A stretch of 64,000 nucleotides of DNA, taken from Cycas panzhihuaensis. Its lineage: Eukaryota > Plantae > Cycadophyta. The position numbers and the translations under genes are program-made. The stretch's first letter is position 1. Each line of letters starts with the position of its first letter. The stretch is taken from NCBI GenBank assembly GCA_023213395.1, contig CM041465.1, positions 137,585,741 through 137,649,740 on the forward strand. The letters run 5' to 3'. Below, in pieces: positions 2,561-30,230 of this stretch. Under the pieces are notes generated by a model. The model was given only the letters and a program-made list of their open reading frames with translations, made no database searches and was not told the DNA's origin.

Positions 2561-2708
2561 ACAAAGCTTTCCAACACTTTAGAAGAAGGAAAGAGCCACA
2601 AGGAGTGCACGTTGGGGGCTGCCCAACGAAGGAGATAAAGAGAAAGGAACCACTAGAAGGTAGTAATATCAACAGGAAGGGATGAGAACTAGCTCCCTTA
2701 CTGGCAAG

Positions 2709-2726
2709 TCCCCAGTATGGTCGCCA
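2709..2726 (-). promoter_or_regulatory. Primer-binding site of element A (TGGCGACCATACTGGGGA, tRNA-Arg-like)
   Basis: Identical to the PBS of B; one base after a CA LTR end at 2728 on the minus strand. Confidence 0.85.
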
Positions 2727-3362
2727 GTGGATGCGCATCTACGGAATAATCACCTAGCTGAGTAGAAATAGTGAGGATGATCGATAACGGTATCGAGGGT
2801 GCAGATAGAAACCTACAAGCGAAACGAGTACCATGCAGGGCGCCCCATGTGCTGGAGCATGAGTTCGGGACCTGCGGATGATATCCAACTACTTAAGAGT
2901 GGTTCCCCACCTCAAAGAGAAAGGGGGAAAGTGAGAGAAGTAGCCTGGATAGACTTAGGAAGAAAGTCCTCCCACCCTTGGATGGTCGGAAGGGGAGGAA
3001 GAGAATCCCCAAGGGTTTCCCTATGACGGAGGGAAACAAGCGGGAGTAAGGTAAGTGATAGCCTATGGTGCGACTAGGATCTTCTCGATTATTTGATTGA
3101 GCAAATATAGCCGAGAAGAGGAGAAGGGAGCGGGAGTAGACAACAATCCCAAAATCTCCCTTAATGATTCGGCCAAGAAGGCGAGAGTGATGTGGCATAT
3201 GCAAGCAAATAAAACCAAACAAAGAAAACAAGCCAAAAGGGGCGAGGATTGGTTTTGCAAGCTGAAGAAAAGACGAAGGAAAAATCTCCTAAAGTCTTTT
3301 CTCAGAGTGAATGTGGTGCGTAATGTGTAAATATATAAATGCGAGTAAAAGATATTAATTTC

Positions 3363-5941
3363 GGTTTCCCAGCTACTGGGAATGGACTCGAGACGCATCG
3401 ACGCAGGTTTGTTTAGGTATACTTTCTTGCCTTTTCTTGCCCATGCTTGATTGAGGTTATTTAGAGTAGGTTGCTTGACATATGCCTACCTGTACACATT
3501 GCTTTTCTGCTTGCTCATAATGCATGTGCTTACGGCATACCATCAGCTTATGACGACTCGCAACGGGGGCATTCCTCAGCGAATGCTACACCCCGTATGG
3601 CGCACAGTCACCCACGTTGTCTCCACGGTCTCCTGGGATGTTTCTGCCAGTCCTATATGCTCTCGTTACAACGTGTTGCTTATGTTACAGTCCTTCCTAA
3701 GCCTGATTTAATCCTTAGTTAGGACTCTTTGCATTGTTTGGGTACTTGCCCATTACCTGGGCACTCCCCCAACTGCTCTGACTTATGTTTAGCCTTGTTT
3801 TTACCCTAAAACTTGATATTTCTGCTTATTTTTCTCTTTTTTTTGTTTCGATGACATCTGCAAATTTAGCGATCAAGATTTGGTCGCAGATCGCAGTTTG
3901 CCGCAGACGATCGCTTGAAATTTAAAAAAAAGAGAACCATGCGACAGTTTCCGTTTTTTCACGGAACTGTCGCGTGGCGTTGGTTGATTCGAATCGCCCT
4001 GACATCCCCAACATTCACCTGCTGTGAACAAGGGATAAAGGGGATTTTGCCCCCCATTTTTTAGATCTTTTGGCCATTTTTCAAATCTCTTGGAAGAATT
4101 TCTAACTTTCACATAAGAAAACACACAGAAAAGACAAACTACATACACAGCAACTGGACAAAGGAGAAGAGGATTGCTATTAGCTAGACTTGCAGGGCCA
4201 TTGCTGCCCCCCTACAGCTCTCCACAGCAAGCCCCATCTTTCTTTGCAGGTGCTCAAGGATCCAAGTGACTTCTTCACCCAAAAGCTACCTCAAGAACCA
4301 ACTTTGAAGGCTCCAAACTTGCAAGGAGTTTTTCTTCATTCTCACTCTTGCAAGGACCACTCATGATTAGTCCCTATACGTTGTTTATTGCTACTGTTCT
4401 TATCAGCGAAGTGCATGCTTGATCTTCCTCATACAAGTTACTTCTTGTTTTACTTGCAATCTATTTTATTCCTATTTCTTTTGTTCATTAATGAACGAGA
4501 TCCTAGTTAGCTAATTTTCCTAATAGAGTTGCACTAGATTAGTGATACCCTCCCGTTGCTTTTTCCTGTAAGCCTCTCTATTTTCCTTAAACTGTCTCTT
4601 CCACCCCTTCCTTAGTTAGCCGGTGTAAAGGAGTACATACGAGGATTTGAGGGAGGTAGGCGGGGTTCCGTCCCCCATTGTTGTCCTTCTCCCTAAGGGT
4701 TCTGTCCCTTGTCCTCTTTCCCTGTGCCATCCGTGCTTTCTTAGGGAACGAGCTAAAGGAGTTTAGGGGATTTAGTTAGGGTGTTCCGATTAGCATAGGC
4801 AACTTGTCACTACGTCATTGTCAGAAGTCTCACTCGTTTGTGTTGGACCCTACGTGAGCTCCAGTTCTCTTTTTTTATATTATTCCTTCCCTTGTCACGG
4901 TTTGTTGTTTCACTACCTTATTGCCAACTAGTTCTTCTTCCTCGAGTTCCGTGGAGGTCTCCCGTGGGTGAGTTAGCCATCCCGAGGCTATACTCCTTTC
5001 CCTTTCAAGTGTTTTCGCGGTGCATGGTGGTGAGAACGTTTCTTATATATCGCCATTTCGTTTGGTTATATTCCATTGCTTAGCTTAGATCTTAATTTCA
5101 TTTGATTTCAATTTATGTATATATTTCTTGGTATATCTTGTGGCCTCTCTTCGGAGAGGAAGGTGTCCTTCTTACCTATTTGCAGGATCGCGCATTGGTG
5201 GAGTGATATGCGGGATGAGCCCGTTGCAGGTTAGTTCCCTGCGTAGTGCATTTCTTTCTTTAGTTTCAAGTTTTTTTCGTTCCTTTCCATTTCATTTGCT
5301 TTTGCATGCTTAAGGGGAGGTAAGTAAACCCCTCTTCCATCCCTTCCGGTAATTACCGCCGATCGGCATTGCATGCACGACAAACGGAGAAGGAAGGAGC
5401 GGGACTTAGAGAGATGAGCCACACCTCCATCTAGGCGTCGGGTCCAAGTATTCCCCTTGCTTCCTGTGTATCCCCTTTTACATTGTTACCTTTTATGCAA
5501 TTGCCTGAGTAGTTAGGAAATTGTAAAAGAATATAAAGGAAAAAGGAAAAGCACATTCATCTTTTACATTATTTCTTGTTTTATCTAGCATAGCATAGCA
5601 TAGATAGCTTGCTCGCGTCGTATTCGAGCTGCCCCTCCATTGCACCTTTTTCGCATTTGCCTGCACATTAGTTAGCTCCCCTTCCATCTGTTGCCTTCTC
5701 ATTGCCTTGAGAAGACGCAACGCGCAAGGCATTCTCTCTCCTTCCCGGCCATCCGAAGGGTAGGAAGGCTTTGCTTTGCACAGCTACCTGGAAGCAACCA
5801 GGCACCTTGCAGTCCTAAATCCGTGCTCCGGCACACGGATGCCCTGCGAGGTGAGGTCCTCGCTGCCTAGCTTAGTTAGCATAGCGTATTCTTATATCCT
5901 TTTGCTAGACGTAGGATCATCACCCTGTAGCGAGCATTTCA
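3363..5941 (+). repeat. 5' LTR of element B (~2.58 kb)
   Basis: Collinear with 17417-19983. Starts GGTTTCCC (TG mutated to GG) and ends TTTCA before the PBS. Confidence 0.93.
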
Positions 5942-5942
5942 C

Positions 5943-5960
5943 TGGCGACCATACTGGGGA
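5943..5960 (+). promoter_or_regulatory. Primer-binding site of element B (TGGCGACCATACTGGGGA, tRNA-Arg-like)
   Basis: TGG one base after the LTR end; resembles the tRNA-Arg PBS (TGGCGACTCCACTGGGGA) typical of Tat/Ogre elements. Confidence 0.88.
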
Positions 5961-6113
5961 CTGCCAGTAAGGGAGCTAGATTCGCTTCCCCTTTTGTTGG
6001 TGTTCTTGCCCCTAGGTAGTCTCCTATCCTGTATTTCAGTTGGGCAACCCCCAACGTGCTTGTATTATTTTCTTCTTTTCATTTTCTTTTAACAATGCTC
6101 GCAAAGGCGTTGC

Positions 6114-8440
6114 ATGCGACGTTTCTCACGTCACTTGCGAGGTCTGCCGCCGTTGTTAGAAGACCAATCGCCTCGATCCCTTCCGTCGTCGAACCCCGAT
6201 TCGACAATGGAAGGTTACCCGGCCGATTGGGCTTACCATACCATGGCTTCGGGAACTCAAGAGTTTCCCTCATCTGTTCTGGAATCCGCCCATAGGGGCA
6301 ATGATTCCATCTACTATCCAGATGACCAGTTTCACCCTGCTGACTTTCACCCTTCCGCTCATGCAGCGGAAGATTCGGCCCCTCACGAGACTCACCACTC
6401 TACTGGTGAGCCTTACGAGGAGCGTCCTGAGGGATCCCCTACTTTCGAGATCCCATCGACTTTGTATGGCTATGAGGATACCCCTCCCGCTAACGTAGTC
6501 AAAGCGCTCAGCGAGTACTTCCGAACGACTCGCCGCCAACCGCATCTTAAGTGGTTCGAAGAAATGTTGTGCAACGCAGCATCTTCTTCATCCATCCCTG
6601 CGCCTCATATAACGATTGATGCTTCTGCCTGCGCACACTCGTCCTATGCCATGTCTACCCTAGCTCCCAGGGCAAGCGTTACGCCGCCTACTTCTAGCCG
6701 TGGTCCTACTTCTTCAGGACCCGTTCGTGGTATGTCCTTTCCCCAACTCAGGGTTAGTATGCCGTTTCCGAGTCAAACACATGAGCCGCCTTCGAACGTG
6801 GCACACGCGTTTCCTAGTAGGCCTCGAGGCCCTACTAGTGCTGCTGCCGTCAACTATGTAGGACCCACTCCTACATACGTTCAAAACTCTACTGGTGGTC
6901 CTTCCCTTTACGTGCCCCCAGGTTACACGTCTCAACCTTGGGGGCAAGGTAGGGGAAACCATCTTCCTGCTTATGGGGTGGACCCGTTGCACCCATATGG
7001 AGTTGCGCCACCTACGGGTGGCCCATATGGGCAAAACCTGGTCCCTCACCCTTCATTTCTGCGATCTAGCGTGACTCTCGTTGTCGCACCTTCGCAAGGG
7101 AACATACCTCCCTTCTAGAGCGTTTACCCGTAACCCCCTTTCCAACAAGGGGCGTTTCCCCAAGGAGGGATGGGTTTACCACCTCCATCCATTCCTTTAC
7201 CGATCGTCAATCCGTTAGCCCATGTGAGGACACATCCTTTCATGGACTATAGGTCGACGCCATTGTCTATTGAGGCGCTAAGGACCAACCTGTAGCCTCA
7301 CCCTCCTAAAGTTCCTAAATTCGATGGAACTTCGTCGCAAGACCCTACCGAGCACGTACGTAGTTTCTCTATGGCGTGCATCAATTATTGGGCTTACGAC
7401 CATATTCTGATGAAGTTATTTTCGCGATCTTTGTAGGGCGACACCCTCAAGTGGTTCTACCATCTCCCTGCTAATTCGATTTCTTCGTTCCAGCAATTGG
7501 TGGATGAGTTCGTCAACTATTTTGACGTAGCCCGTCCATTCGAAAGCGAAATGAAAGCGCTTATGTCACTTAAACAAGGTCACGATGAAATGAATCGTGA
7601 CTTTGTGTGATGCTTTTATGATCTCCTTCACTCTACCAAGGCCACGTTGCCTGAAGAGTTGAAGCGAGATCTCTTCATCAATGCACTTCGCCCCGAAGTG
7701 CATGTGGAAGTCCTTAAGATGGGGGCAACCACATGCGACTCCACGATTACAAGGTGCTTGGCGTTGGAGGCCATTGAAATACAAGCTAGACTCAAGAAAC
7801 CTCCTAAGCCCTCACAATGTCGTGAGGCGCCTCCCCCAGCGAAGGAAACCAAACCTTCACAGCCCGCTAGGCCCACCTCTCATCCGACTGAGAGGACCCT
7901 AGATCCTCTCACCTCTACTATTCGCTCATTTGAGCGCACGATGAAGGAGCTTAAACTCTAACCTCCTTCATCGCCGACCTTTCATAAACCAGTTCAGCAA
8001 GCTTCTCGTGCGATGCCCCCCAAAGGGGGTAACACTCAACCTTCTCAAGCAAGGAGGATTGATCATCCCCTTAAGAAGAGGTGGTGTTCCATCCACAGGG
8101 AGTGTTTCCATGACGATTCGCGTTGTCCAAGAAGACCCACGCCGACGCCCGCCGTGATTCGTCCCCTAGGCAGGCATCGAGGCCTAACCTTGATCAACCC
8201 GTTCATAGAGACCCATTCCCCAAACATGGGGAACATGGTCGTGATGTTCAGCAAAGGAACAATCAGAATCGGGATAGATCCCCCGATTCTCGCCCTTCGC
8301 ATGGTAGAGAGAAGGGTGTGCGAAGGCCATCTTCCCCTTTGCGCTCCCCTGACCGCCATGCTCCATCACCTTCGCGGTCCCGTAACAAGGGAAAGATGGT
8401 GATCCAAATGCTTAAGACCACTCCCCTTTACGCGTTGACC
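6114..8440 (+). pseudogene. gag: gag of element B, disrupted
   Basis: 334-aa Pro-rich ORF from 6114, then gag core (VPKFDGTSSQDPTEHVRSF, WAYDHILMKLF, LKRDLFINALR) and WCSIHRECFHDDSRC knuckle; in-frame stops. Confidence 0.88.
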
Positions 8441-8639
8441 TAGTCTCAAGTCGCAAAGGAGGCAACAGGTGCCTCCGCATCCACCTCGCAACTTGATCCT
8501 CCTCCAGAGGCCATTCCTTCAGAGATTCCCGTACTTCCCAAGAGTGTTCCCATCTGTCCCGGTAGATTCGACTTTAGGAGAGCCCTTACCCAACCCACAG
8601 GGAGGGGTAAGCCCTTCTCCGTAGTCGAAGAGCTTCTCA

Positions 8640-9300
8640 CTGTGGTTGCCGGGATGTCCATCATGGACGTCTTGAGAAGTTGCCCCGAGCAGCGAGCGCT
8701 CCTCTTGGAAGCTCTAGGATCGAATGACGCGTCCGTTCATGCCTTGGGCACAACCCAAAGCTGTGAACCTGTCATCTCCTTCGATCCCAGAGATCTTCCC
8801 GCATCTAGTGGAAGGGAACGCCAATGGAACTTCCCTTTCACCATTACCATAGATACTCCTGATTGCACGTTGTGAAGAACCGTCATGGACAACGGTTCTT
8901 CCGTGAATGCCATGCCCTTGCGCGTTATGCAAGAGCTTGGCATTTTCGCCTTGGAACCTATTCCATGGCGTTGTCAGGGTTATGATGGTAGCGAGAAGAC
9001 TCCCTTGGGATCTGTTTCGATATCCCTTACTCTCGAGGACAAGACTGTCATTACTGACATCGTCGTCCTCGATGTTGATGTTGATTACAACTTGCTTCTG
9101 GGTCGACCATGACTTGACCAAATGGGAGCCGTGTGTTCCACTCGTTGGGGGCAACTTAAATTTGTCCATAACGGGCAAATGAAAGTTGTCTCCTGCGAGC
9201 GATCACTCGCCAAACAAGCTAGGCCTTCGCTGCAAAAGCCATGGCCATACGAAGGGAAACAAATGCCCTTCCGACCATGTCTCGGCTTACTCCATTGGAA
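8640..9300 (+). pseudogene. pol: Aspartic protease of element B
   Basis: VMDNGSSVNAMP catalytic motif and DYNLLLGRP motif (ORF 8885-9112). Confidence 0.88.
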
Positions 9301-9989
9301 TCCACGATTCCTCTTACCGTGAAGAAGATCCCATATCTTCTTCTCTTGATTTGACGCGTTTCACCCCCATTAGTGTCAGGAGCTATGGGTACCTCGCCAT
9401 GTTTGACGATGACGGGTCCCATAGCGAGGATGAGGATCGTCCTCACCCAGTTTCATTTCTCTGCACTAGTGTGGGGCATCCTCCTAATCTTAGGTCTCCT
9501 CCTATGACCCCTTTTGTTATGGAGCTTGGTCATTTTCACATGTCATATGACATTGCGCATGTTGATCATCACGTTTCTGGCTCTTCCATCCCATCACCTC
9601 CCGTAGGTGATGATATTGAGAGTTTCCCTCTTGCTTTTTACAAGGGACCTCTCCTTGACTCTCCTTCAGAGTCTCTTAGGGATGATGGGCGCCTTCGTGC
9701 CATACCACCCTATCGCTCCCACGCTATCCCGCGCCTCGTCTATTCGAAGTCAGGTCATCCATAGGGTGGACTACTTCGAAGACGATGAGCCTTTGTTGGA
9801 ACACTTAGCAGGTTCCATGCCTAGTTTACCTCCTGGTCACCACAAGCTTGGCCACCAGAAGGTCTTAGCGATTGGGTCCACATTAGCTAACCCAATCCCT
9901 TCTTCCGTTTCGTCTCTTCTGGTCGATCATGCCCCCCTCCATTCGAGGAGGGGAATGCCATGTGCATGGGGGCAACTTAGGACAACGTC

Positions 9990-11400
9990 CTTGCCTCGGA
10001 CAAGGTCATCAAGGTAGGAGCGGAATGTACTCCTGACGAAGTGAGGGAATACTCCCTCATGTTCCAGGAATTCTGTGATGTATTCGCATAGGACTACTCG
10101 GGCATGAAGGGCATTGACCCCTCCATCGTCACCCATAACCCACGACTGCCTCGACGCCGCCCGGTGCGTCGAGCGGCGTCTTCACCTAAGCTTTCACCGC
10201 CATTAAGATGGAGGTTGAGAAGCTTACGGATGCGGACTCGTTTCTTCCATCGATTACCCTAAGTGGGTATCGAATATCGTTCCCGTTGCTAAGAAGAACG
10301 GGACCATTCGTATTTGTGTCGATTTTCGCGACATAAACAACGCTTGTCCTAAGGACAACTTTCCTCTTCTCTTCATTAATCAAATAATCGATCGTACGGA
10401 TGGATTCGAAGTTATGTCCTTGATGGACGGCTTCTCCGACTATAACCAGATTCAGATTTCTCCTGAAGACCGCCATAACACGGCCTTCACTATGCCATGG
10501 GGTGCCTTTGCCTACAAGGTAATGCCCTTTGGTCTTAAGAATGCAGGGGCTACTTATCAAAGAGCCATGCATTTTATTTTTCATGACCTCATCAACAATA
10601 TGTTGGAGGTTTTCATGGACGATATGATGGGCCTTCCGCGTACCAGAGCCCATCATCCCTTCGACTTGCACGCCATCTTCACAAGATGCCACAAGTATCA
10701 CGTTAGTCTAAACCCACTGAAATGTGTGTTTGTCGTCACTTCAGGCAAACTCTTGGGTTTCCTCATGTCCCAACAAGGAATCCAAATCGATCCAGAAAAA
10801 GTCAAGGCAATCCTTGACATGCCGCCGCCTAGGACCCAACAACAAATTAAGTCATTTCTAGGCAGGCTTGGTTTTCTGAGGCGTTTCTTGGCAAATTTCG
10901 CCATAAACGCCAAGCCTCTTACGAACCTATTGAAGAAAGGAGCTCCTTTTGTTTGGTCGGACAAGACCCAAAAGGCCTTCATAGGACTCAAGGAAGCTCT
11001 CATTTCTGCCCCTACACTAGCGCCTCCTCGCTTTGATAGGCCCTTCATTCTATATATCTCAGCAACCGACGAATCCCTGGGCGCAATGATCGCACAGGAG
11101 GACGATTCAAGAACCGAGAGGGCTATTTATTTCATCCGCCGTACTCTCGTTGCCATTGAATTAAACTATCCCCCCGCCGAAAAGGAATGCCTCTCCTTGG
11201 TCCATGCGACCAAGAAGTTTAGGCATTACTTGCTAAGAATACAACCAAGGTGATCGTTTAATCAGATCCTCATGCGTTACTTACTGCTCGGGACTTGGCG
11301 GTAGGGCAGGTCGTTGGGCCGTCCTGCTTCAAGAGTTCGACTTGCAAGTCATCAACAGGAATTCGAAGAAGGGAATGATAGTAGCAGAGCAATTAGCCGA
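9990..11400 (+). pseudogene. pol: Reverse transcriptase and degenerate Gypsy RNase H of element B
   Basis: MDGFSDYNQI, VMPFGLKNAGATYQR, VFMDDM, SGKLLGF; RNase H region reads LYISATDESLGA, with the catalytic Asp replaced by Ser. Confidence 0.92.
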
Positions 11401-11499
11401 TGCTGCCATTCCCAACACGAGCGGCGTTCCTATTGACGACTCTTTCTTGGACGAGTCTATCATGACCATCCACGATGCTTCTCCTCACCCACTCGCCGA

Positions 11500-12752
11500 C
11501 AGTGAGTGGTATGGTAACATTGTGCCATATCTCACTCAACAAGAATATCGCTCAGAAGCAAGTAACAAGGTTAGGTTGCGTATCTGCGCCACTGCTAGGC
11601 AACACTTCCTCGCGGATGAAGTGTTGTACAAGAGATCCTTTAATAGGATCCTGCTTCGCTACGTCACTCCTGATGAAGCGGACCAAATACTCCGCGAATG
11701 CCATCATGGCATTTGTGGAGGCCACTTTGGGGGCCAATCCATGGCCCAAAGGATCCTCTGCATGGGTTATTACTGGCCGTCCTTGTTCAAGGATGCCCAC
11801 GCCTGTGCCCTTAGATGTCGGCGATGTCAGGAGCACGCCAATGTCTCCCACGTACCTTCCGAGGTGTTGCATCCTATTGTGTCTCCATGGCCCTTTTCTC
11901 AATGGGGCTTAGACCTCATTAGGGCTATATTGTCGCCATCTTCCGCACAACATAAATATATCTTAACCGCTACCGAATACTTCACTAAATGGGCAGAGGC
12001 AATCCCCCTGTCCACTACCCCTGGCAAGACGATAGCCACCTTCGCTCACCAAAGATATTATCTATCATTTTGGGATTCCAGATGTCCTAATTACGGATAA
12101 TGGAACTTCCTTCTGTAATAAGGAAATGGATGAATTATGCGAGAAATTCAAGATCTCGTATAAGACGTCATCCCCTTATTACCCCCAAGCAAACGGGCAA
12201 GTTGAATCTTTCAACAAAACGCTCGTCAGCATTTTAAAGAAAACCGTCACCCAGTCTCAAAGAGACTGGCACATCCAACTCCCTTCCGCCCTGTGGGCTT
12301 ATCGCACTTCCATCTGCACGGCTACCGGAATGACCCTATTCTCGTTAGTCTACGGAGCCGAGGCGATACTCCCACTGGAAGTGGAGATCCCCTCTCTTCG
12401 AGTTTCTCTTCGAGGCCTTATTGACAAGGAGTCTATTCACCAGGCTCGCCTCCTAGACCTCGAAGCCATGGATGAGAGGCACTTAACGGCTTATGAAGTG
12501 AACCTCGCTTCGAAAGCCCGCTTGCAAAGGACACACGACAAACGTCTTCATGCTCGTCCTTTGTGCCACGGGGACCACGCCCTTAAATTGGAGTACCTTT
12601 ACGATCGTTTGGCCAAATTCGGGCCCAAATGGGTAGGCTCCTTCGTTGTTCATGAAAGCCTCGATAACGACGCCTACAGGATCGCCACCTTAGATGGCTT
12701 AGAATTTGAGAAAACGGTCAACGGAAAATTCCTTAAGAAGTTTTACGCGTGA
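11500..12752 (+). pseudogene. pol: Integrase of element B
   Basis: HHGICGGH...CRRCQ zinc finger, PWPFSQWGLD, SSPYYPQANGQVE, C-terminal GPKWVGSF...VNGKFLKKFYA; one frameshift near 12050-12100. Confidence 0.92.
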
Positions 12753-13285
12753 TCTTTCCGCTTTTTTCTCCGCCATGCTCTAAAACGAGCCTAAACTACC
12801 ATTTTAAATTGTTCCCATTCCTCTCAACCACGGGTAGAATCGTAATTTAAGATGGATTTTCGCTTCTTCTTCTTGTTCCTCCCGCGGAACCTGCGTTCCC
12901 GTATGCTCTCGGGAACCTTTGTCCTCCTATTTGGGCATTCCCCGACTAGGACGACGCTGTGGAGTATTGTCACTCCCTTCTCCTGCCTGTTGTTTCCTTC
13001 GCATATTCTGCTATGCTCCCCCGTGAACGTGCATGTCGCTCTATTTCTAACCTCACACCTCTCGATCACGTCTGCTTACAGTGGATGTGTGTGCTCCTGT
13101 TAGACATATAGCCATACATGGAAGGAAACACATGCATATTACAACCAAATACTTACAACAAAACATATTTACATATTTACATTTACAACATACAAAATAT
13201 TCATTTACAAAAGTAAACCATACATGCTATCTCTAGCATACATGATACACACCATTTCATGTCAAAATGGGGTTCCAATTACCCC

Positions 13286-13286
<1 letters not shown>

Positions 13287-13344
<58 letters not shown>
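13287..13344. repeat. (TA)29 microsatellite
   Basis: Read directly from the sequence. Confidence 0.95.
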
Positions 13345-13349
<5 letters not shown>

Positions 13350-13477
13350 CAAAATGTCATGGTATATCATGCGTGTGGGAAGCTGGGATCCTTGCAGGGG
13401 AGGGTACAATCATGTGAGCCTACATATGACCCCCTAGAGGCCCGCGCTTTCCCGTCAAAACCATATTTACATCTCAT

Positions 13478-15906
13478 CTACTGTTGTCCTGATCCTGGGG
13501 TGCCATCCCCTGGTCTATGTGATTCCTCTCCTGGGGACCACATCCCTCCGAGGCTCCTCCTGGGCCTCCGCGAGCTGCCTGCCTCGCTCCCCTCATCCCG
13601 AGGCCGTCTCAGGGTAGTAGTCGCTGTGTGTATGGGTCCAGCTCCTGCTCGACCTCGAGACCATCTGCGCTACCGGTCGCATTCTGACACGGATGCGATC
13701 CCTCTCACCCTGCAGTCCCTCCTCCATACTCAAACTTCTCCTCTGTCACCTTAAGGTGCTCCTCTAATCGCTAGGCGGATGCCGCCTCGCATCTCCTCCT
13801 AGTCCGCCTCCGAGCCTCTAAGGCATGGACTCGTCTGCAGCCTCATCCCGCCGCCTCGGCCGCCGAGCTCTCACCGCACTGTCCCCGAAATGCCATGTGC
13901 TCTCGGGTCTCGCAACCTGGATGTCTCACCCTGCCTGGGGCGAATGCCTGCATGTGGGCTCCTGCCGATCTGGGCGCATCCTCCACCCGGATGGGTGGTT
14001 GCCCCTCTGCGTAGACCTGAGGGAACATCTCCCTCACCATGGCCTCCACCGGACCTGCACTACTCACATCACATGCAACATGACGTATATCAGTGTAAAT
14101 CCTCACTGCATACCATAATGAAATGTAATCAAAGATCTATCTAGATGTCAAACGACTAAGGAAATGGTTAGGTCTCACCTGCCAGGCCACTGCTACTCGC
14201 CGGTGACATCCTCATCTCCTGGCCCTCTGCCAGCTGCAGGTACCTCGTCCTCAGGTACATCCTCTGCCTCTACCTCACCTCTAGCAGGATCGGCTCACCT
14301 CGCCTCTCGGATCTCCTCACAATCCGTAGTCTGCGACCCCTGGTCTCGGGCACCCCGCCGCCGCCAGCCTCTTGATGGGCTCGCCTTCTCCGGCAGTCCC
14401 GGATGGCCCTGCTACTCCTCCTGTCGACCGTGATGGACCTGCCTCTCCTACAGGTCGTGATGGGCCAGCCCCATCTCCCCCGTCATCACCGTCGTCGCCG
14501 CCATCGTCGTCGCTATCATCGTCGTCATCATTGGCGATGGGCGCTCCTGCTCTGCCTGCTTCATCATCACTCTTCCACCTCACTGCTCTGTAGGGCTCTA
14601 CTATATAGTCTGTCAGAGTGAGGAGGTCGAGTGATGTTGCATTAACCGACCGACGGACATGGGCCTGGTCCTGTATCCCTCAGAGCTGCGTTTTCTATCT
14701 GTGGACCATCGGGGCCCACTCTACTATGGGGAATGGCCCCCCTACTGGTGCCACCACCGCAAAGTGATAAAAAAACTAGCACTGCAATAGCGTGCTATAA
14801 GAAAACCCTCCTCTGCCGGATCTTCGGATGGTGTCTAGCTGGGCGACGAGGTTTGCCACAACTAGAGTGGCCCAGTCCATTCTCTCGCTAGCCTCACACC
14901 GGCGTGCTGCATCCACTCAACCTTCGGGGATCTCCCTGTAGTTCTATTTCTGGGAAATCTGGAATAGAATGCATAGTAGTATCAACTTCCTCACTTGAGG
15001 AATCCTAAACATGAGCATAGTCTAGAGGGGAGCTCCCCTCCGCTCCCACCTGTCACTCCCTGTGAGGAACTAGGCCACCTCCCGTGTCTTGCCTCGGTCT
15101 TGGCAGCCCCACCCTCACCGGCCTCCCCAGCCATTTGGTACTCCTAAGATCCGCCTGATATCTCTTGGGGTGATCGTGACGCCGCCTATCTGAGGCAAGT
15201 GAAAGACATGCCTCCTCATGTCCCAGTGTGACACGATGTCAACTAGGAGCCTCTGGTTTGATGCGAACTAGGGGGTCTTGAGGGCCTTATATAGGCCACA
15301 CCTCTTCAGAGTCGCCTTGTCCTCTTGGGACACCATCTCCAAGTGACTCAGTATCGGCGTGCCGATGTTCTCGCGGTTATCCACCGTGATAACTGCCTGC
15401 AATCATCAAAAGTCAGTCAAGGTCAGTTTCCTAGCAGTCATCTAAGCTCCTAGCTCTCTTTCTGATGTTCCTTTCTGATTTTGGGGGCTGTTTGGCCCCT
15501 TTTCTAGTTTTTTCTAGTTTTCTGCCTGCGTACCACTCCAAATTTAGCGGTACCGCTAAATTTGGAGCGGGTCCAGCGGCGATCGCTTTGCTATAGTGAT
15601 CCCGCGGCCAAGATCGTAGTCTTGATCTTGTCCATGCAGATGAACGGCAAACCCCAAAAAAGGGGTTTCACTGAAAATCCCAAAAATTTTTGTGGTGGAG
15701 CCCCGTGGGGCCCACTGGGACCAGGGCTCCCTAATGCCCAGGTCCCCGCCTCTTTCTGGGTCCAATTCAGACTCCGAGAGGCATCCAATCGCCCATAAGG
15801 GGCATAAAAAAGCATACAAATTAATTAAAAAGCATTAACTTTCAAACTTTGAAATGGCAAGGGTTTCGTGAGATCCACTCACTGGGTCTGGCCTGACCGT
15901 CGCCAT
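13478..15906 (-). pseudogene. Antisense three-exon plant mobile domain (PMD, aminotransferase-like; MAIN/MAIL-type) gene inside element B
   Basis: Manual translation gives LLVDIVSHWDMRRHVFHLPQIGGVTITPRDIRRILGVP and MDWATLVVANLVAQL...STLLQC*FFYHF, which match PMD motifs. GT-AG introns at 15397-15882 and 14055-14178 keep the frame across their junctions. The C-terminal part is D/G-rich and charged, with stops and frameshifts. Confidence 0.8.
15536..15567. repeat. Perfect 32-bp palindrome CTCCAAATTTAGCGGTACCGCTAAATTTGGAG
   Basis: Read directly; lies within intron 1 of the antisense gene. Confidence 0.95.
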
Positions 15907-16037
15907 CTCGTCTCTAGGGTCGTAATGACTCTCGTCGTGCTCGAATCCAACGGTCGGATCGTCTCCTGCATGCCTCCGAAGTCGGGTAGCGCTCCGTGTC
16001 GTAAAGAAAAGGCTCTGGTTTCGTACGAGAGCCGGTG

Positions 16038-16073
16038 AAAATGAATCCGATTTTCATTTGTTTTCCTTATATA
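16038..16073 (-). promoter_or_regulatory. TATA box (TATATAA) and initiator-like TTCATTTT of the antisense PMD gene
   Basis: TATATAA on the minus strand at 16067-16073, pyrimidine-A initiator about 30 nt downstream, ATG at 15906. Confidence 0.6.
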
Positions 16074-16585
16074 GCTGGGGCCACGGCACTTCTTCCGCTT
16101 CGGCTCATGCTGCTGGGACCGACCCATTTCCCTGGTAGCCTTTACCTTCTGGCCCTATTGCCCATTGTACTCTATTAATGCCCTTTTTGCCCTCCCTTGC
16201 AAGGGCATTTATGGTGCCTCATTATCGCACTTTTGCTAGGGCCCTTCTACATCGTTTTGCATGCTACTCCCATGCATGCCTGAGTTTATACTCATTTAGC
16301 TCAATTCGCCGTCCTAGACTCATTTTCGTAGCCCTTTCTTGCTCTTAGGATCTCCAAAGGAAATGCTCCCCCATTCAGGGGCATGTTTGCTTTCCAAAGT
16401 AACCTTTGGCACTCCAGTATGTTTTTCTCTCCGCCCACTCACCAAAGGGCCGGATTACTTGCTTTGCCTCGTGTAACCTCATTGCTAGGTCCTCCTACCC
16501 TTCTCGGCCACCTTCTTGCTTGCCATTTGAGTCTTTGTTTTATTTTCATTGCTATTTGTTTACTACCAGAGCTTAGTATTCAGGC

Positions 16586-17007
16586 ATGTCCCTTCTCGTT
16601 TTTACCGACGGTGGAAGTCGCGGCAAGAACCCGGACCTTCCACCGCGTGGATTCTTCGCAGCCCCTCCGAACATGATTCCTTGCATTCCAGGGTCTTCCT
16701 CCCCGAGGCAACCAATAACGAAGCTGAGTACACAACCGTTATTGAAGCCCTTACCGATGCTCTTTGCTTCCATTGCAGGTCCATTATGTTGCTTTGTGAT
16801 TCCCAGGTCGTGGTGTCCCATCTCACCTAGGTCTACCACGTGCAATGCCCTCACCTGAGAACCCTCGCGTCTGCTGTCAGATCTCTTCTAGCTTGTTTCT
16901 CATCAGTGGATATTCAGTATATCCCTAGGCACGTTAATGTTGAGGCCGACAGCCTCGTCTGCCTCATCCTTGAGCATCGCCTCCCTCTTTTAGACGACCG
17001 CCCCTGA
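16586..17007 (+). pseudogene. Stand-alone archaeal-type RNase H (aRH) ORF of element B
   Basis: MSLLVFTDGGSRG..PGPS, ATNNEAEY, LLCDSQVVV, YIPRHVNVEADSL: all four acidic catalytic residues plus the aRH-type Arg. One frameshift near 16630 and one TAG at 16828-16830. Confidence 0.9.
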
Positions 17008-17264
17008 GGCTTGCCTGGCCAGCCTGTGCCCGAGTCTCCAGTTGTTGTTAGTTAGATTACTTGCTCTATTTGCTGGATGCCCTCCTGCTCCACGTTGCAC
17101 TTTGGTAACGGCAGCATCCCCTTTTACTTGCTTATTCCAGTCACAGGTCAATGTTTAGACGACGCGTAGGTAGCCCCTACGTTGTCCTCGTCTCTGTCTC
17201 CCTTGTCCACGCGTTCCGCCATGACACTTGCCTATGCCCTTGGTCCACGTGCTGCTCTTTATTG

Positions 17265-17266
<2 letters not shown>

Positions 17267-17338
<72 letters not shown>
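17267..17338. repeat. (TA)36 microsatellite
   Basis: Read directly from the sequence. Confidence 0.95.
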
Positions 17339-17342
<4 letters not shown>

Positions 17343-17392
17343 TGTGCTACTCATATCTTTGATTGTCATCATTCGCCATCACGTTACGCCTC

Positions 17393-17402
17393 GAAAAGGA
17401 GG
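17393..17402 (+). promoter_or_regulatory. Probable polypurine tract of element B (GAAAAGGAGG)
   Basis: Only purine run near the 3' LTR start, but 14 nt upstream of the TG at 17417. Confidence 0.55.
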
Positions 17403-17416
17403 CTCACGCCAAGGCG

Positions 17417-19983
17417 TGTTTCCCACCTCGGGAATGGACTCGAGACGCATCGACGCAGGTTTGTTTAGGTATACTTTCTTGTATTTTCTTGCCCATGCTT
17501 GATTGAAGTTATTTAGAGTAGGTTGCTTGACATATGCCTACCTGCACGCATTGCTTTTCTGCTTGCTTATAATGCATTTACTTACGGCATACCATCAGCC
17601 TATGACAACTCACAACGGGGGCATTCCTCAGCGAATGCTACACCCCGTATGGCGCACAACCACCCACGTTGTCTCTACGGTCTCCTGGGATGTTTTTGTC
17701 AGTCCTATTTGCTCTCGTTACAACGTGTTGCTTATGTTGCAGTCCTTCCTAAGCCTGATTTAATCCTTAGTTATGACTCTTTGCATTGTTTGGGTACTTG
17801 CCCATTACCTGGGCACTCCCCCAACTGCTCTGACTTATGTTTAGCCTTGGTTTTTATCCCAAAACTTGATGTTTCTGCTTATTTTTCTCTTTTTTTGTTT
17901 CTAATCAGATACCGCTGCAAACTTAGCAATACCGCAGAGTTTGCTGCGGTACGACTGTTTGAAATTTAAAAAAAAGAGAACCATGTGACAGTTTCCGTTT
18001 TATCGTGGAACTGTCACATGGCGTTGGTTGATTTGAATCGCCCTGACATTCCCAACGTTCACCTGCTGTGAATAGGGGATAAAGGAGATTTTGCCCCCCA
18101 TTTTTCAGATCTTTTGTCCATTTTTCAAATCTCTTGGAAGAATTTCTGACTTTCACACAAGAAAACACACAGAAAAGACAAACTACATACACAGCAATTG
18201 GACAAAGGAGAAGAGGATTACTATTAGCTAGACTTGCAGGGCCATTGTTGCCCCCCTACAGCTCTCCACAGCAAGCCCCATCTTTCTTTGCAAGTGCTCA
18301 AGGATCTAAGTGACTTCTTCACCCAAAAGCTACCTCAAGAACCAACTTTGAAGGCTCCAAACTTGCAAGGAGTTTTTCTTCATTCTCACTCTTGCAAGGA
18401 CCACTCATGATCAGTCCCTATACATTGTTTATTACTACTGTTCTTAGCAGCGAAGTGCATGCTTGATCTTCCCCATACAAGGTACTTCTTGTTTTACTTA
18501 CAATATATTTTATTCCTATTTCTTTTGTTCATTAATGAACGAGATCCTAGTTAGCTAATTTTCCTAATAGAGTTACACTAGATTAGTGATACCCTCCCAT
18601 TGCTTTTTCCTGTAAGCCTCTCTATTTTCCTTAAACTGTCTCTTCCACCCCTTCCTTAGTTAGCCGATGTAAAGGAGTACATACGAGGATTTGAGGGAGG
18701 TAGGCGGGGTTCCGTCCCCCATTGTTGTCCTTCTCTCGAAGGGTTCCGTCCCTTGTCCTCTTGCCCTTTGTCATCTGTGCTTTCTTAGGGAACAGGCTAA
18801 AGGAGTTTAGGGGATTTAGTTAGGGTGTTCCGATTAGCATAGGCAAGTTGTCACTACGTCATTGCCAGAAGTCTCACCTATTTGTGTTGAACCCTACGTG
18901 AGCTCCATTTCTCTTTTTTTGTGTTATTCCTTCCCTTGTCACGGTTTGCTATTTCACTACCTTATTGCCAACTAGTTCTTCTTCCCTGAGTTTCGTGGAG
19001 GTCTCCCGTGGGTGAGTTAGCCATCCTGAGGCTATACTCCTTTCCCTTTCAAGTGTTTTTGCGGTGCATGGTGGTGAGAGCGTTTCTTGTATATCGCCAT
19101 TTCATTTGGTTATATTTCGTTGCTTAGCTTAGATCTTAGTTTCATTTGATTTCAGTTTATATATATATTTCTTGGTATATCTTGTGGCCTCTCTTCCGAG
19201 AGGAAGGTGTCCTTCTTACCTATTTGCAGGATCGTGCATTGGTGGAGCGATACGCAGATTTGAGCCCGGTGTGTTAATTCTCGCATAGTGCATTTCTTTC
19301 TTTAGTTTCAAGTTTTTTTCGTTCCTTTCCGTTTCATTTGCTTTTGCATGCTTAAGGGGAGGTAAGTAAACCCCTCTTCCATCGCTTCCGGCAATTACCA
19401 ATGATCGGCATTGCATGCAGGACGAACGGAGAAGGAACGAGCGGGACTTAGAGAGACGAGCCGCATCTCCATCCAGACGCCGGATCTAGGTATTCCGCTT
19501 GCTTCCTGTGTATCCCCTTTTACATTGTTACCTTTCATACAATTACCTGAGTAGTTAGGAAATTGTAAAAGAATATAAAGGAAAAAGGGAAAGTGCATTC
19601 ATCTTTTACATTATTTCTTATTTTATCTAGCATAGCATAGCATAGATAACTTGCTCACGTCATATTCGAGCTGCCCCTCTATTGCACCTTTTCCGCATTT
19701 GCCTGCACATTAGTTAGTTCCCCTTCCATTCGTTGCCTTCTCATTGCCTTGAGAAGACGCAACGTGCAAGGCATTCTCTCTCCTTCCCGGCCATCTGAAG
19801 GGTAGGAAGGCCTTGCTTTGCACGGCTACCTAGAAGCAACTAGGCACCTTGCAGTCCTGAATCCACGCTCTAGCGCATGGATGCCCTGCAAGGTGAGGTC
19901 CTCGCTGCCTAGCTTAGTTAGCATAGTGTATTCTTATATCCTTTTGCTAGACATAGGATCACCGTCCCATAGTGAGAGTTTCA
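17417..19983 (+). repeat. 3' LTR of element B (~2.57 kb)
   Basis: TG...CA ends, followed by TSD ATTTC; differs from the 5' LTR mostly by transitions. Confidence 0.93.
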
Positions 19984-19988
19984 ATTTC

Positions 19989-22204: not shown

Positions 22205-25200
22205 CTAACCTCTTTAGTAGTCCACCCCATGGATGACCACGCTTCGAGAAGACGAGGGGAGAGGAGTAAAAGGAGCAAAGGGGACCGTAGCGACCCACCA
22301 TTAGATATACCCAAGGGATTTTTCAGAAGAGTCAGAAGGGGTCCTCTTGTGAGAAACAATAAGAAGCTCCCTCACTTCATCGCCTACAGAGGGCAACAAA
22401 GTGGAAGATAGAGTGATATGGGGGATTGCATGATTGGTAGGAGCGATGATATGTGATCCAAGAGGAAAGTTGGTCTCCTTAATTGGAGAAAGTTCAAGTC
22501 TGGACCTAGAATGAATAGAGTGCCTCCTACTTGCATTTAGGAGGGATATGGGATGAGGAAGGTCCTCATCCTCGCCATTGGATTCGTTGTCACTAAGCAC
22601 GACGAGATACCCATAGCTCCCTACACCAATAGAGATGAAGTAGATGAGATTTAAGGAAGAAGAGGAGGGACCTTCTCCCAAGCTAGATGAGCCAAGAATA
22701 TCGATAGAGCAAACAGAACTGTGGGCAAATAGATCCTTATTGCCCTTTGCCTTATCGCAAGCTGCTTGACGAGGTTGGCGGGTTTGTTTGGTGGGAGGAG
22801 GCTCTCGAGAGATAAACTTCATTTGCCCTTCATGGATGAATTTAAGTCATCCCCAACGAGACGAGCACACAACTCCCATCTGGTTGAGCTATGGGTGTCC
22901 CAACAAAAGGTTGTAGTTGACGTCGACGTCGAGAACTACAATGTCAGTTAGGACTGTTTTGTCCTTGAGGGTGAGTGGAATGAGCACTGATCCTAAGGGT
23001 GTCATTTTGCTACCATTGTAACCTTGACACTACCATGGAACTGGCTCTAGAGTTAATATGCCAAGCTCTTGCATGACGTGTAAGGGCATAACATTGATGG
23101 AAGAACCATTGTCCACAACGGTTCTTCGAAGAGTGTAGTCGGGAGTATCAATAGTTATGGTGAAGGGATAGTGCCATTGGCATTCCCTTTCATCGGTTGG
23201 AGGAAGATCCTTGGGGTCGAAGGAGATGGCAGTTTCGTGGCTTAGAGCATAAAGCATGAATGGATGTGTCACCCAATCCCAAGGCTTCTAAGAGAACTTA
23301 CACTGTTTAGGACAGCTCCTCAAGACATCCATTATGGACATCCTCGCGGCCATAGTGTGAAGCTCGTCGACAACAAAGAAGCACTTCCCCTTCACGGTAG
23401 GTTGGGGAAGGGCCCTTCAAAAGCCGCAATGACCGAGGCACACAGGAATAGTCTTGGGGAGCGCAAGGACTTCTAGAGGAGGGATTTTTAGAAGGGAATC
23501 AAGGTGAGGTATGGAAGAAGAGGCGTCGTTTGCCTCTTTAGCCACTTGAGACTGGGTTAAGGCATATAATAGCGTGGTCTCGAGCATCGAAATGACTCTC
23601 TTTCCCTTGTCTCGGGATCGAGAGGATGAAGGAGTGTGACAAATGGGGGAAATATAAGGAGAGGACAAATCCCTTGTACCCTTCCCTTTGGCTTGCAAAA
23701 GGCAAGGGTTTGGGGACCTCCCTCTATTTTGGTTACCCTTTTGTTGGTTATTGTGATCACGTTCCCATGTTTAGGGAAAAGATCCTTGTAGATGGGCTGG
23801 TCTAGGTTTGGCCTAAATGCCCGTTTGGGAGAAGAATCACGTTGCGGGGTGGCTCTACGGTGCTGGGCCCGACATTGTGAATCTTTGTAGAAATACTCTC
23901 CATGGATGGAACACAATTTCTTTTCTAGGGAGGCATTGAGCTTTCTCATTTAAAAAGATTAGGTGTTACCCTTGAGGGGAGCAGCTTGAGAGGCCTATGA
24001 ACTGGTTTATGAGAGGTGGAGGATGAAGGGGCTTGGAGTTTAAGCTCCTTCATGGTACGTTCGAATGAGCGTATAGTGGAGGTGAGAGGATCCAAGGTCT
24101 TCTCTGTTGGATGGGAAGAAGACCTGGTAGGCTATTGGACTTTAGTCTCACAGAGTGGTGGAGGTAGCTCACGCCGTTGTGAGGGCTTAAGAGGCTTCTT
24201 GAGACCCGCTTGGATTTCAATAGCCTCGAGTGCCAAGCGCTTGGCTATGGTGGAGTCACATGTTACTGCCCCCATTTTAAGGACTTCAACGTAGACTTCT
24301 AGGCGAAGGGTGTTGATAAAGAGGTCTTGCTTCAACTCCTCAGGTAAGGTTGCCTTGGTGGAGTGAAGTAGGTCATGGAAACATCTCACAAAGTCACGAT
24401 TCATCTCATCATGACCTTGTTTAAGAGATAGAAGAGCTTTTATTCGGCTCTGGAAAGGACGACCTATGTCAAAATAATTGACGAATTCATCCACGAGTTG
24501 TTGGAATGAAAAGATAGAATGTGCTGGCAGGTGATAGAACCACTTAAGGGCATTGCCTTAAAGAGATTGTGGGAAGAGTTTCATAAGGATATGGTCATAA
24601 GCCCAATAATTGATACATGCCATAGAAAAGCTATGGACATGCTCCGTTGGGTCTTGCGATGAGGTTCCATCAAATTTGGGAACCTTGAGAGGGTGAGGCA
24701 GTAAGTTGGTCCTTAGCACCTCAATAGATAGGGGTGTCGATCTATAGTCCACAAAGGGGCGTGCCCTTGACTGGACCATAGCATCGATGAGAGATGGAAG
24801 AGGAGGTAGACAAGGTTGCCCAAATCCTCCTTGGGGAATTTGATTCGAAAGGGGATATTGGCCTCCTCCAGTTTGATGAGAAGACACTAGTCCCACATTC
24901 GAAGGAATATACATAGGAGCAGATGGGGGTGAAGGACCCATCCCTCCTTGAGGAAATACCCCTTGTTGGAAAGGAGCCTGAGAGAAGGTACCTTGGGAGA
25001 GAACTTTCCCTCCTTGCAAAGGTGCAACATGAGGTGTGACATGGGAGGATCGAAAAGAGGGGTGTAGAATTGGGGTTTTGCCTATATGGGCCGCCCGTGG
25101 GTGGTGTGACCCTATATGGGTGCAAAGGGTCCACCCCATAAGCTGAAAGAGAGCTTCCCTTGCTGTGCTCCTACGGTTGAGAGATGTAACCTGGGGGAAC

Positions 25201-25562
25201 GTAAAGGGAGGGATCCCTACGTTGAACTTGGGAGTGTGTGGGGACGGCCCCCACATGGCTAGAAGTAGGGGTGCATGCATGTCCCTTAGATCCAATAGGT
25301 GGCGGATATACTATAGTCGGCAGAGGTGTAGACGTTTAACTAGAAGGGGGCATGCTCAACCCAAGTTGGGAAGAGGATATGCCTTGGGTGGTCCTCAAGG
25401 ATCATGGACTATGAGGAGAGGAAGATGAGGCAAAAGATAAACCCATCGTGGTAGAGGAGTTAAATAGGATGGACGAGGTAAGGCAGATGTAGAGGAAGGA
25501 GGTGCAACGCTTCGCAAGATGCTCTTAAACCACTTGGGATGTGCTTGGAGGTGAGGACCAAC
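22205..25562 (-). mobile_element. Element C: internal gag-protease fragment of the A/B Tat-like family
   Basis: WAYDHILMKLFPQSL, MDEFVNYFD, LCSIHGEYFYKDSQC, VVDNGSSINVMP; homologous to B ~6540-9790; no LTRs recognised. Confidence 0.88.
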
Positions 25563-27489: not shown

Positions 27490-30230
27490 TAATACTAGGA
27501 GTTTCACTAGTTGACATCTGACCTTATAGACACCCACACCACTTCAAGAAGGAAATACAATAAATCGCCAAGAATTTGTTACAACAAGGAGCTATTGTGG
27601 CCAATTCTAGTCCTTTTCTATCACCAGTTATTTTGATAAAAAAGAAGGATGGGTTGCATTGGATGTGTGTTCACTATCTTGCTCTCAACAAGTTAACAAT
27701 CAAGAATAGGTGTCCAATGCTATGGATTGACGTTTTGTGAGATGAACTACATGGTGCTAAGAACATCTCTAGGATTGATCTTACTTCAGAGACATGCATA
27801 AAATAACTTTATAGACACATCAAGGCTTATTTGAGTTTTGGGTGATACCATTTAGGCTGGTTAATGAATCAATAACATTCCAATGCACCATGAACATGGT
27901 GGTTAAACCATTTATTAAGAAACTTGCCCTACTATTCTTCAATGACATTTTGATTTGTAGCTAAACATTAGACAAATACTTGGAGCATTTGTAGGAAGTT
28001 TTGCAAGTCTTGGAAGAAAACCAATTCTTCACAAATAAATCCAAATCCACCTTTGGACAAATAGAACTAGAATATTTGGGGCATATCATCACCCAAGACA
28101 GAGTAAAGAAGGATCCTAAAAAAAGTCCAAGCCATCGTGAATTTGCCCACGTCAAATAATATTGCAAGTGCCAGATATTTTTTTGGGGCAGTTGGATTTT
28201 TGTGACACTTCATAAAAGGATATGCAATCATAATAGCACCATTAATGAGTCTCACAAAGAAGGGAGCTTTCATATGGCACCAACCAGTAGAACAAGCTTT
28301 CCAAGGATTGAATAATGCCATGCTCACTACCATGTTTTAGCTACACAAGACGTAAGAGAACCGTTTGTTTTGGAATGTGATGCTTAAGGAGTTGGATTAG
28401 AAGCAATTTTGCTTTAGAACAAGCAACCCATAGCTTGTAAAAGTCAGAGACTAAATTCAAGAAAACAACTAAAACATATTTACAACAAGGAAATGCTTAC
28501 AATTATGCATGCCATCCACCAATGGCAACAATACTTAGTAAGGAGAAAATTCTTCGTCAAGACTAATCATGACAGACTTAAGTATTTCTTGAATCAAAGG
28601 GTTTTATCAAACAAGTAACAAAAATGGGTAAGCAAATTGCAAGCTTTCGACTTTGGTATCATCTACAAGAAAGGGAAAGAGAATGTGGTGGTAGATCCAC
28701 TAAGTAGGAATCCAAAGCAACCCACCCTTTGGGCAATTTCGATGGACACACATAGTTGGACACACGAGTTGGTACAAGAATACTAGAAAGATCGAGGGCA
28801 CAACATATACTCTAAAAAATCCAAGCAAGAACACAAACGAAATACAGATTATGGACTGATTTAATTTTGCATAGGGGGAAGATCTTTGTCCCTCATACAT
28901 CAACACTGGAGGAGAAGTTCATTCAAGAAGTTCATGTGACACCATTATTAGGGCATAGGGATCGACAAAATGTATTTCCAAGTCCATAATATATTTTTCT
29001 CAAAAAGTTTGAAAGTAGATGTCTACAAGTTTGTATTAGAATGCAACACTTGTCAAAGAACAATAGCAAAAATATTAGAATTCTAAGATCACTTTACTCG
29101 TTACATATACTAGAACAAAAATAGGAGGAAATATCAATGGATTTTATAATAAGTCTATTGAGATAAGGAAGTAAGGACTTGTTATTTATAGTAGTGGATC
29201 AATTGGCTAAGTATACACACTTTAGAGGTATTCAGTCCATAGTTAAGGCTAGTCAGATTGTCAATCTATTTATTAAAGAATTTTGCATCATGTGGTTTTC
29301 CCAAAGTGATAGTAAGTGATCTAATCTAAAATTCATGAACAACTTTTGACATGAGATGTTCCACCAGGGAGGTACTAAGCTCACAATGAGCATAGCCTAT
29401 CATCCACAAATAGAAGCAGTGAATAAATGTTTGGAAGGCTATCTTCAGAACTTTTCACCTAATAAGTAACAACATTAGCATAAGTGGTTATATCCAACTG
29501 AATGGTGGTACAATACCACCTATCACACCTTGGTCAAGATGACTCTTTTAGGCATTATATGGTTATGAACCCCTATCTCTCCTCCCATGGGCCAATAACT
29601 CCTTGTACTTGTTGTATAGGACCAACAATAATAGTTGGCTCAGATAGTACAAATTTTGAAGGACTATTTTAACTTAGCAAAGAACCATATGCAATAAAAA
29701 GTTGATTTGCATAGATTAGAAAGGCTATTTGACAAAGGAGGTGGGTTTTTTTTAACGCTTCATCGCTTCATCTATATAAACAATTTATGCTAAAGCAGGC
29801 AAGGAGGTTTAAATTATGGCCACAATTTTATGGGCCTTATTAGATCTTGGAGAACGTACAAGAGGTAGCCTACCAACTTGATCTACTACTTAACAACAAA
29901 GTGCACAATGTATTGCACGTCTCTTGTGACAATACTTCCCATGATAATCAAGACAATACTTCCCATATTAGACGAAGAAGGATAGTTTACTATAGAACCT
30001 GAAGCCATTATCCATATTCAAACTAAGCAGCTTTACTCTAAGAAGATTTGTGAGTATTTGATCAGGTGGAGAGGCCTCAACAAGGAAGATGCCACGTGGG
30101 AATCTAAAGCATGGTGCCAACAACATTCTCACATTTCCACGTTTTGAAGGCAAAACATATTTTCAATAGGGAGAACTTGTAGCATTTCTTTTGAATGCAT
30201 AACTAGGCTCTACTCTTAATATTTTGTTCT
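27490..30230 (+). mobile_element. pol: Decayed chromovirus Gypsy pol (RT-RH-INT-chromodomain), PPT and start of 3' LTR
   Basis: SSPFLSPVILIKKKDG, FFNDILI, LECDA*GVG, GPY motif, chromodomain EYLIRWRGLNKEDATWE (~30050-30105), then AGGGAGAAC followed by TGTAGCA at 30178. Confidence 0.85.

Follow-up and report, generated by a model that had tools for sequence, protein, structure and literature searches.

A stand-alone archaeal-type RNase HI gene (aRH) near the 3' end of a Tat LTR retrotransposon of Cycas panzhihuaensis is the RNase H that a 'structure #3' Tat element encodes separately; judged by its sequence, its product is probably a free protein, translated from a spliced RNA in which gag-pol is skipped, and would act in trans. 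The gene lies in a 64,000-nucleotide stretch of DNA (NCBI GenBank assembly GCA_023213395.1, contig CM041465.1, forward-strand positions 137,585,741 to 137,649,740; hereafter the window, whose own numbering is used throughout). A first-pass annotation of the same letters had presented this layout as unusual, a view that the accessible texts of two papers correct, as they already describe a separate post-integrase aRH ORF (PMC10508981, PMC13468544). Since the layout is catalogued, the element itself is ordinary and its value lies in the mechanism; relative to the literature searched, what is new here is the acceptor signal before the aRH ATG and the shifted position of aRH, behind an antisense plant mobile domain (PMD) gene.

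The element and its RNase H gene

The Tat element is complete, spans 3363-19983 (16,621 bp) and carries an LTR at each end plus a 5-bp TSD (Table 1). The two LTRs are identical at 2387 of 2559 aligned bases (93%), which corresponds to a K2P distance of 0.071, and the PBS, which resembles that of Ogre, may be of the tRNA-Arg type. Between the LTRs, the order is gag, PR, RT, native RH, integrase (ending at 12752), antisense PMD gene and aRH. This copy is dead. Its native RH reads YISAT and has lost the first catalytic Asp, as the annotation had claimed; the corresponding motif is HVDAS in an element of the window that lacks aRH.

Table 1. Features of the element, in window coordinates (strand relative to the forward strand)
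Feature	Position	Strand	Basis or remark
TSD, left copy, ATTTC	3358..3362	+	matches 19984-19988
5' LTR, ~2.57 kb	3363..5941	+	alignment to 3' LTR
Strong donor-like site in LTR, GAG/GTAAGT (candidate)	5317..5325 (5320)	+	6/7 consensus; in both LTRs
PBS	5943..5960	+	identical in older minus-strand relative
Donor-like site behind PBS, CCA/GTAAGG (candidate)	5964..5972 (5967)	+	4/7 consensus; kept in older relative
gag-pol with RT, native RH and integrase, split over several frames by decay	6093..12752	+	
Further antisense pieces, may belong to PMD gene	13846-14679	-	
Antisense PMD gene, decayed	14746..15393	-	weak Pfam and tblastn
TATA-like box and upstream GGCC motif	16067..16082	-	read from sequence
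T-rich tract and first CAG (likelier acceptor, 16 bases before ATG)	16511..16569	+	in-frame stop between CAG and ATG
Second CAG (weaker acceptor, 2 bases before ATG)	16581..16583	+	three other AG in preceding 14 bases
Stand-alone archaeal-type RNase HI gene (aRH)	16586..17007	+	DEDD and Arg motif
Purine-rich stretch, likely polypurine tract, 14 bases before 3' LTR	17393..17402	+	read from sequence
3' LTR	17417..19983	+	alignment to 5' LTR
TSD, right copy, ATTTC	19984..19988	+	matches 3358-3362

The motifs and flanking sites reported for aRH were all found where they had been placed: the ATG at 16586, TDG at 16604, AEY at 16723, CDS at 16795, IPR at 16921, ADS at 16945 and the stop codon at 17005-17007, with CAGs ending at 16569 and 16583. 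From the integrase stop to the ATG there are 3,833 bases (given earlier as ~3.8 kb), and the gene ends 409 bases before the 3' LTR. By plain translation aRH is outside Pol, again as proposed, given the integrase stop at 12752 and an in-frame stop before the ATG. In this copy two lesions disrupt the gene: a frameshift near 16627, which leaves the first Asp in a different frame from the rest, and a stop at 16828. The HMM search that had been suggested gave a Pfam RVT_3 match above the cut-off (E 2e-15) for the part after the frameshift, read through with X, and the best matches among solved structures were RNase HI proteins (E 6e-11). The broken sequence gave an AlphaFold model with a pLDDT of 48 and, as query in a word-based protein search, no match. 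When a ginkgo aRH was used as query, the single match in the whole window was 16586..17007, and a motif scan concurred; neither search found an aRH in the window between RH and INT, which agrees with the earlier reading, or between PR and RT.

The PMD gene is assigned on weak evidence (Pfam PMD E 0.0055, below the cut-off), and it matches the PMD ORF of a related locus, L001 below, by tblastn at E 4e-5. It stands head to head with aRH, which lies behind it. Donor-like CAG/GTGAG sites on the minus strand (14160-14260 and 13920-13940) suggest introns in this gene, with a later exon that is acidic and of low complexity. Long (TA)n runs were also seen at two places, 13287-13345, likely the 3' end of the antisense gene, and 17267-17340, behind aRH; either may correspond to a transcript end, and the second could have travelled together with aRH. 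A TA-rich patch follows aRH in loci L001 and L003 as well. We rejected a scenario in which the aRH region had been inserted on its own between the two runs, as L001 has PMD and aRH together and the TA-rich patches of L001 and L003 follow aRH.

The rest of the window holds other retrotransposons, and no host gene was recognised within its 64 kb. Older related Tat copies lie on the minus strand at 1-3357 and 22551-25400 (70-72% identical over gag and PR), and the main element is inserted in the LTR side of the first. A second Ty3/gypsy element (~41620-51422, plus strand), used as an outgroup only, has an intact native RH (HVDAS) and no aRH, looks like Tat Z1 and bears a sense extra ORF after the integrase (49087-50485), for which the part tested had no Pfam match. 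Decayed pieces at 27791-28723, 31104-34196 and 63357-63962 derive from Ty3/gypsy RT, Ty1/copia and chromovirus-like gag-PR.

Sister copies and relatives

We then turned to four sets of contigs, all from one study, whose runs were found by means of the aRH region. Between 41,600 and 52,082 contigs per run mapped to 12000-17260, and the integrase-aRH interval was covered in 30 of 30 bins in all four. No single contig reaches from integrase to aRH in a sister copy, and the gene order is therefore known from this copy only; contig joints bypassing the PMD region were set aside, being represented by 1-2 contigs each with sides mostly under 30 bases. Sister sequences do carry the gene, contrary to one outcome that had been named as decisive against the first reading, and they mostly lack the frameshift: at that site gap-bearing contigs account for 63-92% of a low depth (27 contig counts in total). 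At the stop at 16828 a different base is read in 52-56% of the depth and the remainder could not be resolved, so that many sister copies may also be dead. Of 73 difference rows 40 were considered, and 32 were left once 6 upstream and 2 at the breaks had been excluded. Among these listed rows, 21 of 32 coding differences were synonymous against the one third expected for transitions (p 2e-4, for rows that are non-independent and with no account taken of methylation-driven change), and at sites with a share below 80% the count was 19 of 25. The ATG and both AGs were unaltered among the 40 of 73 rows, a weak hint only. Altogether, the substitution pattern indicates that the family keeps aRH under purifying selection.

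This bears on whether aRH might have been captured from the host or from a LINE as a fragment, or be a relic that the family does not use. The gene is indeed broken here, and its stop is perhaps common to many sister sequences; yet selection among those sequences, the decay of the native RH, the publication of the same arrangement for thousands of gymnosperm elements and the identity of its nearest relatives, which are stand-alone ginkgo-type proteins both in the tree and in a search of 1.84 billion representatives, leave either reading hardly credible. That aRH belongs to the element, as first proposed, is borne out by its position inside the LTRs and TSD and by its recurrence in sister sequences.

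In the same search, the best match was a 142-aa stand-alone protein (E 1e-20). A Met start is found in 118 of the 120 relatives listed, and 90 of them have a length of 145 or 147 aa, a length pattern that cannot exclude fusions because the profile search was limited to proteins of 40-254 aa. The closest named relative among the matches listed was ginkgo Gb_11691 (142 aa, 50% identical). In an aRH tree of 44 rows, the window's aRH clusters with a pair of unnamed partial sisters and with four proteins of the ginkgo type, of which Gb_11691 and Gb_19334 are named (99/97 support), apart from the aRH fused to RT; forcing the window's group onto the RT-fused type was borderline (AU p 0.052). A conifer-type group lies near the ginkgo-type group without joining it, and forced joining was not rejected (AU p 0.24). 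In the RT tree, which was built from 25 of 120 matches listed in another search (all 120 entered a fast tree), the window's RT falls outside a clade of Taxus, Ginkgo Gb_11641, Cryptomeria and angiosperms (99/98) and branches after the L002 family, weakly (87/64). This placement appears to agree with the ladder described in the accessible text of PMC13468544, in which Tat H and Tat I precede J-L. The phylogenetic comparison suggested earlier is answered in part: aRH groups with stand-alone ginkgo proteins, in trees that carry no labelled TatI-III, Ogre, Retand or other REXdb references and no host RNase H1 or LINE references. The grouping of aRH with the ginkgo proteins, compared here as protein sequences, points to cluster Tat I (Cycas, Ginkgo), which is a probable assignment.

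Gene order in relatives came from one metagenome scan, in which 109 pattern matches yielded four loci (L001-L004) of two families, with hosts that we infer to be conifer-type. In L002 an unbroken Pol of 1961 aa stops 93 bases before a separate 145-aa aRH ORF. This intact Pol ends before aRH begins, and intact members are therefore not fused to integrase, the other outcome that had been held to count against the first reading. The integrase end and aRH are 122 bases apart in L003; in L001, aRH lies 93 bases behind the integrase with an antisense PMD ORF behind it, the opposite order to the element studied here. Hundreds of JGI metagenome proteins labelled 'ribonuclease HI' (P0138, P0290-P0405; one cluster of 530) probably represent retrotransposon aRH that came into the samples with plant DNA, and L001/L002 tie the 530-member cluster to retrotransposon aRH. 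Scans of viral contigs found distant RNase HI (25-40%) at 68 loci and a single distant integrase, and the ESM Atlas gave RVT_3 clusters without informative taxa.

An acceptor-like signal before aRH and how the gene may be expressed

The T-rich tract followed by CAGs that had been reported ahead of the ATG was confirmed, and a T-rich tract with a CAG also stands directly before the aRH ATG in L001/L002 and in L003/L004. Three lineages thus share an acceptor-like signal with the CAG 0-16 bases before the ATG, the other two being ~40-48% alike. Of the two CAGs in the window, 16569 is the likelier acceptor on grounds of AG spacing, as 16583 has three AGs close upstream; the AG-free stretch before the acceptor measures 38 bases in the window (16569), 44 in L001 and 33 in L003. 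No good match to a branch point was found before the window's acceptor. We formulated the signal as a rule (YAG at most 20 bases before an ATG, a T content of 45% or more, no further AG over 30 bases), which was fitted after seeing the sites and which the aRH ATG satisfies in the window, L001/L002 and L003, three lineages only. The rule is also satisfied by ~2% of other ATGs overall; counted with the aRH start, 4/226 ATGs pass in the element, 24/1408 in the window, 2/63 in L001, 1/95 in L002 and 2/139 in L003. An earlier rule (YAG at most 2 bases from the ATG, passed by 6/226 ATGs) favoured 16583 and was replaced after the AG-spacing check. The signal before the aRH ATG suggests a spliced, env-like RNA, and the first-pass claim that a spliced or subgenomic RNA is needed is likely to be right, given its occurrence in three lineages.

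Translation of aRH from the full-length RNA, by reinitiation or internal ribosome entry, with the T-rich tract serving translation and the CAG incidental, would suit L001-L004, where the ATG closely follows the integrase end. Across the 3,833 bases of the present element, with their antisense gene and many ATGs, it becomes very improbable, and a CAG within an AG-free T-rich zone in three lineages is unexpected by such a route.

Candidate donors in the leader, read from the sequence, lie at 5320 and 5967. The annotation had named two donors, both of which exist (GT at 5851 and 5967): the PBS-side site is kept in the older relative, whereas GAG/GTGAG at 5851 is not and was dropped; the site at 5320, of stronger consensus, had been missed. 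The block on the PBS side, including the 20 bases behind the PBS, is identical in the older copy at 1-3357, which has the same PBS, at 37 of its first 40 columns (68% overall). A small hairpin at 6036-6062 (GTTGGG..CCCCCAAC), downstream of the PBS-side donor, is also kept in the older relative, and folding of the leader gave no shared structure except this one; splicing would remove it, as would be expected of a packaging signal. Strong acceptor- and donor-like sites within the 2.57 kb LTR (4240-4255, 5175-5190, 5230, 5320) suggest leader introns. Further donor-like sites, kept in the older relative, lie in gag at 6730, 6753, 6922, 6949 and 7579. Near the integrase end, no donor of at least 5/7 was found in the window, L002 or L003, and the option of a short intron joining integrase to aRH was therefore discarded.

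We propose that a leader donor (5320 or 5967) would join the acceptor at 16569, as in retroviral env. The spliced RNA would omit gag-pol and its product would be a free RNase H of ~140 residues, which could act in trans in the particle and replace the decayed native RH. Acceptor and ORF together would form a movable cassette, and such a cassette would explain why aRH comes right after the integrase in some families and behind PMD here. For this fuller scheme, with env-like expression from a leader donor over gag-pol, packaging of aRH in trans and a cassette that moved within the element (before PMD in conifer-type families, behind it here), we see about an even chance on sequence grounds.

Splicing could instead fuse aRH in frame to Gag or Pol, which would solve packaging and has a precedent in the Ogre intron that joins Gag-PR to RT. 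In L001-L004 the acceptor abuts the ATG, and a phase-0 donor would give an in-frame fusion there; the conserved donor-like sites in gag are compatible with this as well, though coding constraint could explain them. In the window, however, the in-frame stop between 16569 and the ATG excludes a fusion if 16569 is used, and 16583 would require a phase other than that of L001/L003. As the start Met is moreover kept across relatives and no strong donor lies near the integrase end, a fused product seems unlikely.

Alternatively, aRH might be transcribed from an internal promoter of its own that also serves the head-to-head PMD gene, and a short local intron might then end at the same acceptor. The two genes are divergent, with a near-palindromic TATA-like box (16067-16074) in the interval, and weak local donors occur at 16399 and 16417. 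The box is likely the promoter of the antisense gene and could also fire on the plus strand, but its context is better on the minus strand; 12 other ATGs lie within the 690 bases between 15900 and the aRH start, and the local donors reach 4/7 only. The gap of just 93-122 bases in L001-L004 leaves no room for a promoter while the acceptor is still present. We therefore hold local transcription to be rather unlikely, and retain a gag-pol-skipping spliced RNA as the probable source of aRH.

Place among known systems and significance

The element falls within the Tat clade (Ty3/gypsy, OTA) by its RT-RH-INT order between LTRs, its additional aRH with a DEDD core and active-site Arg, and its decayed native RH. 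In the accessible text of PMC6317226, the TatI and TatII elements of REXdb have an aRH located between PROT and RT, those of TatIII carry it after INT, and in Ogre/Retand it separates RH from INT; the annotation had these subclade positions swapped, giving the post-integrase place to TatI. Neither the TatI/TatII nor the Ogre/Retand position is found here. By the same source, TatIII elements have aRH after INT, a 5-bp TSD, a size of 12.7-17.3 kb and a PBS that is mostly of tRNA-Arg, and they are described as unique to gymnosperms (PMC13477047, as far as its accessible text goes); lineage III of Ustyantsev 2015, in the corresponding part of PMC4408406, has a C-terminal aRH and an antisense PMD gene. 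The present element resembles both, with aRH downstream of the integrase, an ATTTC TSD, 16,621 bp and an antisense PMD gene in its 3' part for which the evidence is weak but two-way (Pfam E 0.0055, tblastn E 4e-5). Unlike in those descriptions, as far as they were accessible, where aRH is part of the polyprotein, it is a separate ORF here and in L002.

The closest counterpart is structure #3, called 'post-integrase', which Biryukov and Ustyantsev 2023 describe from pines, cycads and ginkgo with aRH as a separate ORF (PMC10508981, accessible text). Like Tat H (Pinaceae) and Tat I (Cycas, Ginkgo), the element reads GAG.PR.RT.RH.INT.aRH with a separate aRH ORF and a decayed native RH, its RT branches before the Taxus, Cryptomeria and angiosperm lineages, and its aRH is nearest to ginkgo proteins. 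It differs from the accessible structure #3 text in its 3.8 kb INT-aRH distance and in having aRH behind PMD, the papers giving no distance, order or expression route in that text. The accessible part of PMC13468544 makes no mention of splicing, an antisense gene or PMD. Neither the difference in order (aRH behind PMD here, before it in L001) nor a splicing route for a detached aRH was found in the literature searched, most subscription papers lying outside that search.

Splicing itself has been demonstrated in Ogre (PMC6317226, accessible text). The present element would resemble this other Tat lineage in splicing to make a replication enzyme, here proposed from sequence; in Ogre, by contrast, the splice fuses Gag-PR to RT and aRH lies between RH and INT, whereas a free protein is likely here.

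Retroviral env is made from a spliced RNA with the donor near the PBS and the acceptor before the 3' ORF, and plant env-like ORFs are reportedly made from spliced RNA too, to go by the title of a reference. The predicted arrangement, with a donor near the PBS and an acceptor just before the 3' ORF, is like that of env; unlike env, the 3' ORF here encodes not an envelope protein but a replication enzyme bound for the particle core.

That aRH lies outside pol raises the question of how it functions from a separate ORF, according to the accessible text of PMC10508981, and reports of aRH in pol versus a separate ORF in the 3' UTR are called controversial in that of PMC13468544 (2026). An acceptor common to several lineages gives an exact junction to seek and bears on this open question of how a detached aRH is expressed. 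If the proposed route is true, this would be an LTR element whose RNase H is supplied in trans by way of a spliced, env-like RNA, which would be relevant to how retroviruses gained a dual RNase H and a third gene. In that case the element would also have a reverse transcriptase that is naturally split, and the dispute over aRH in Pol would be settled.
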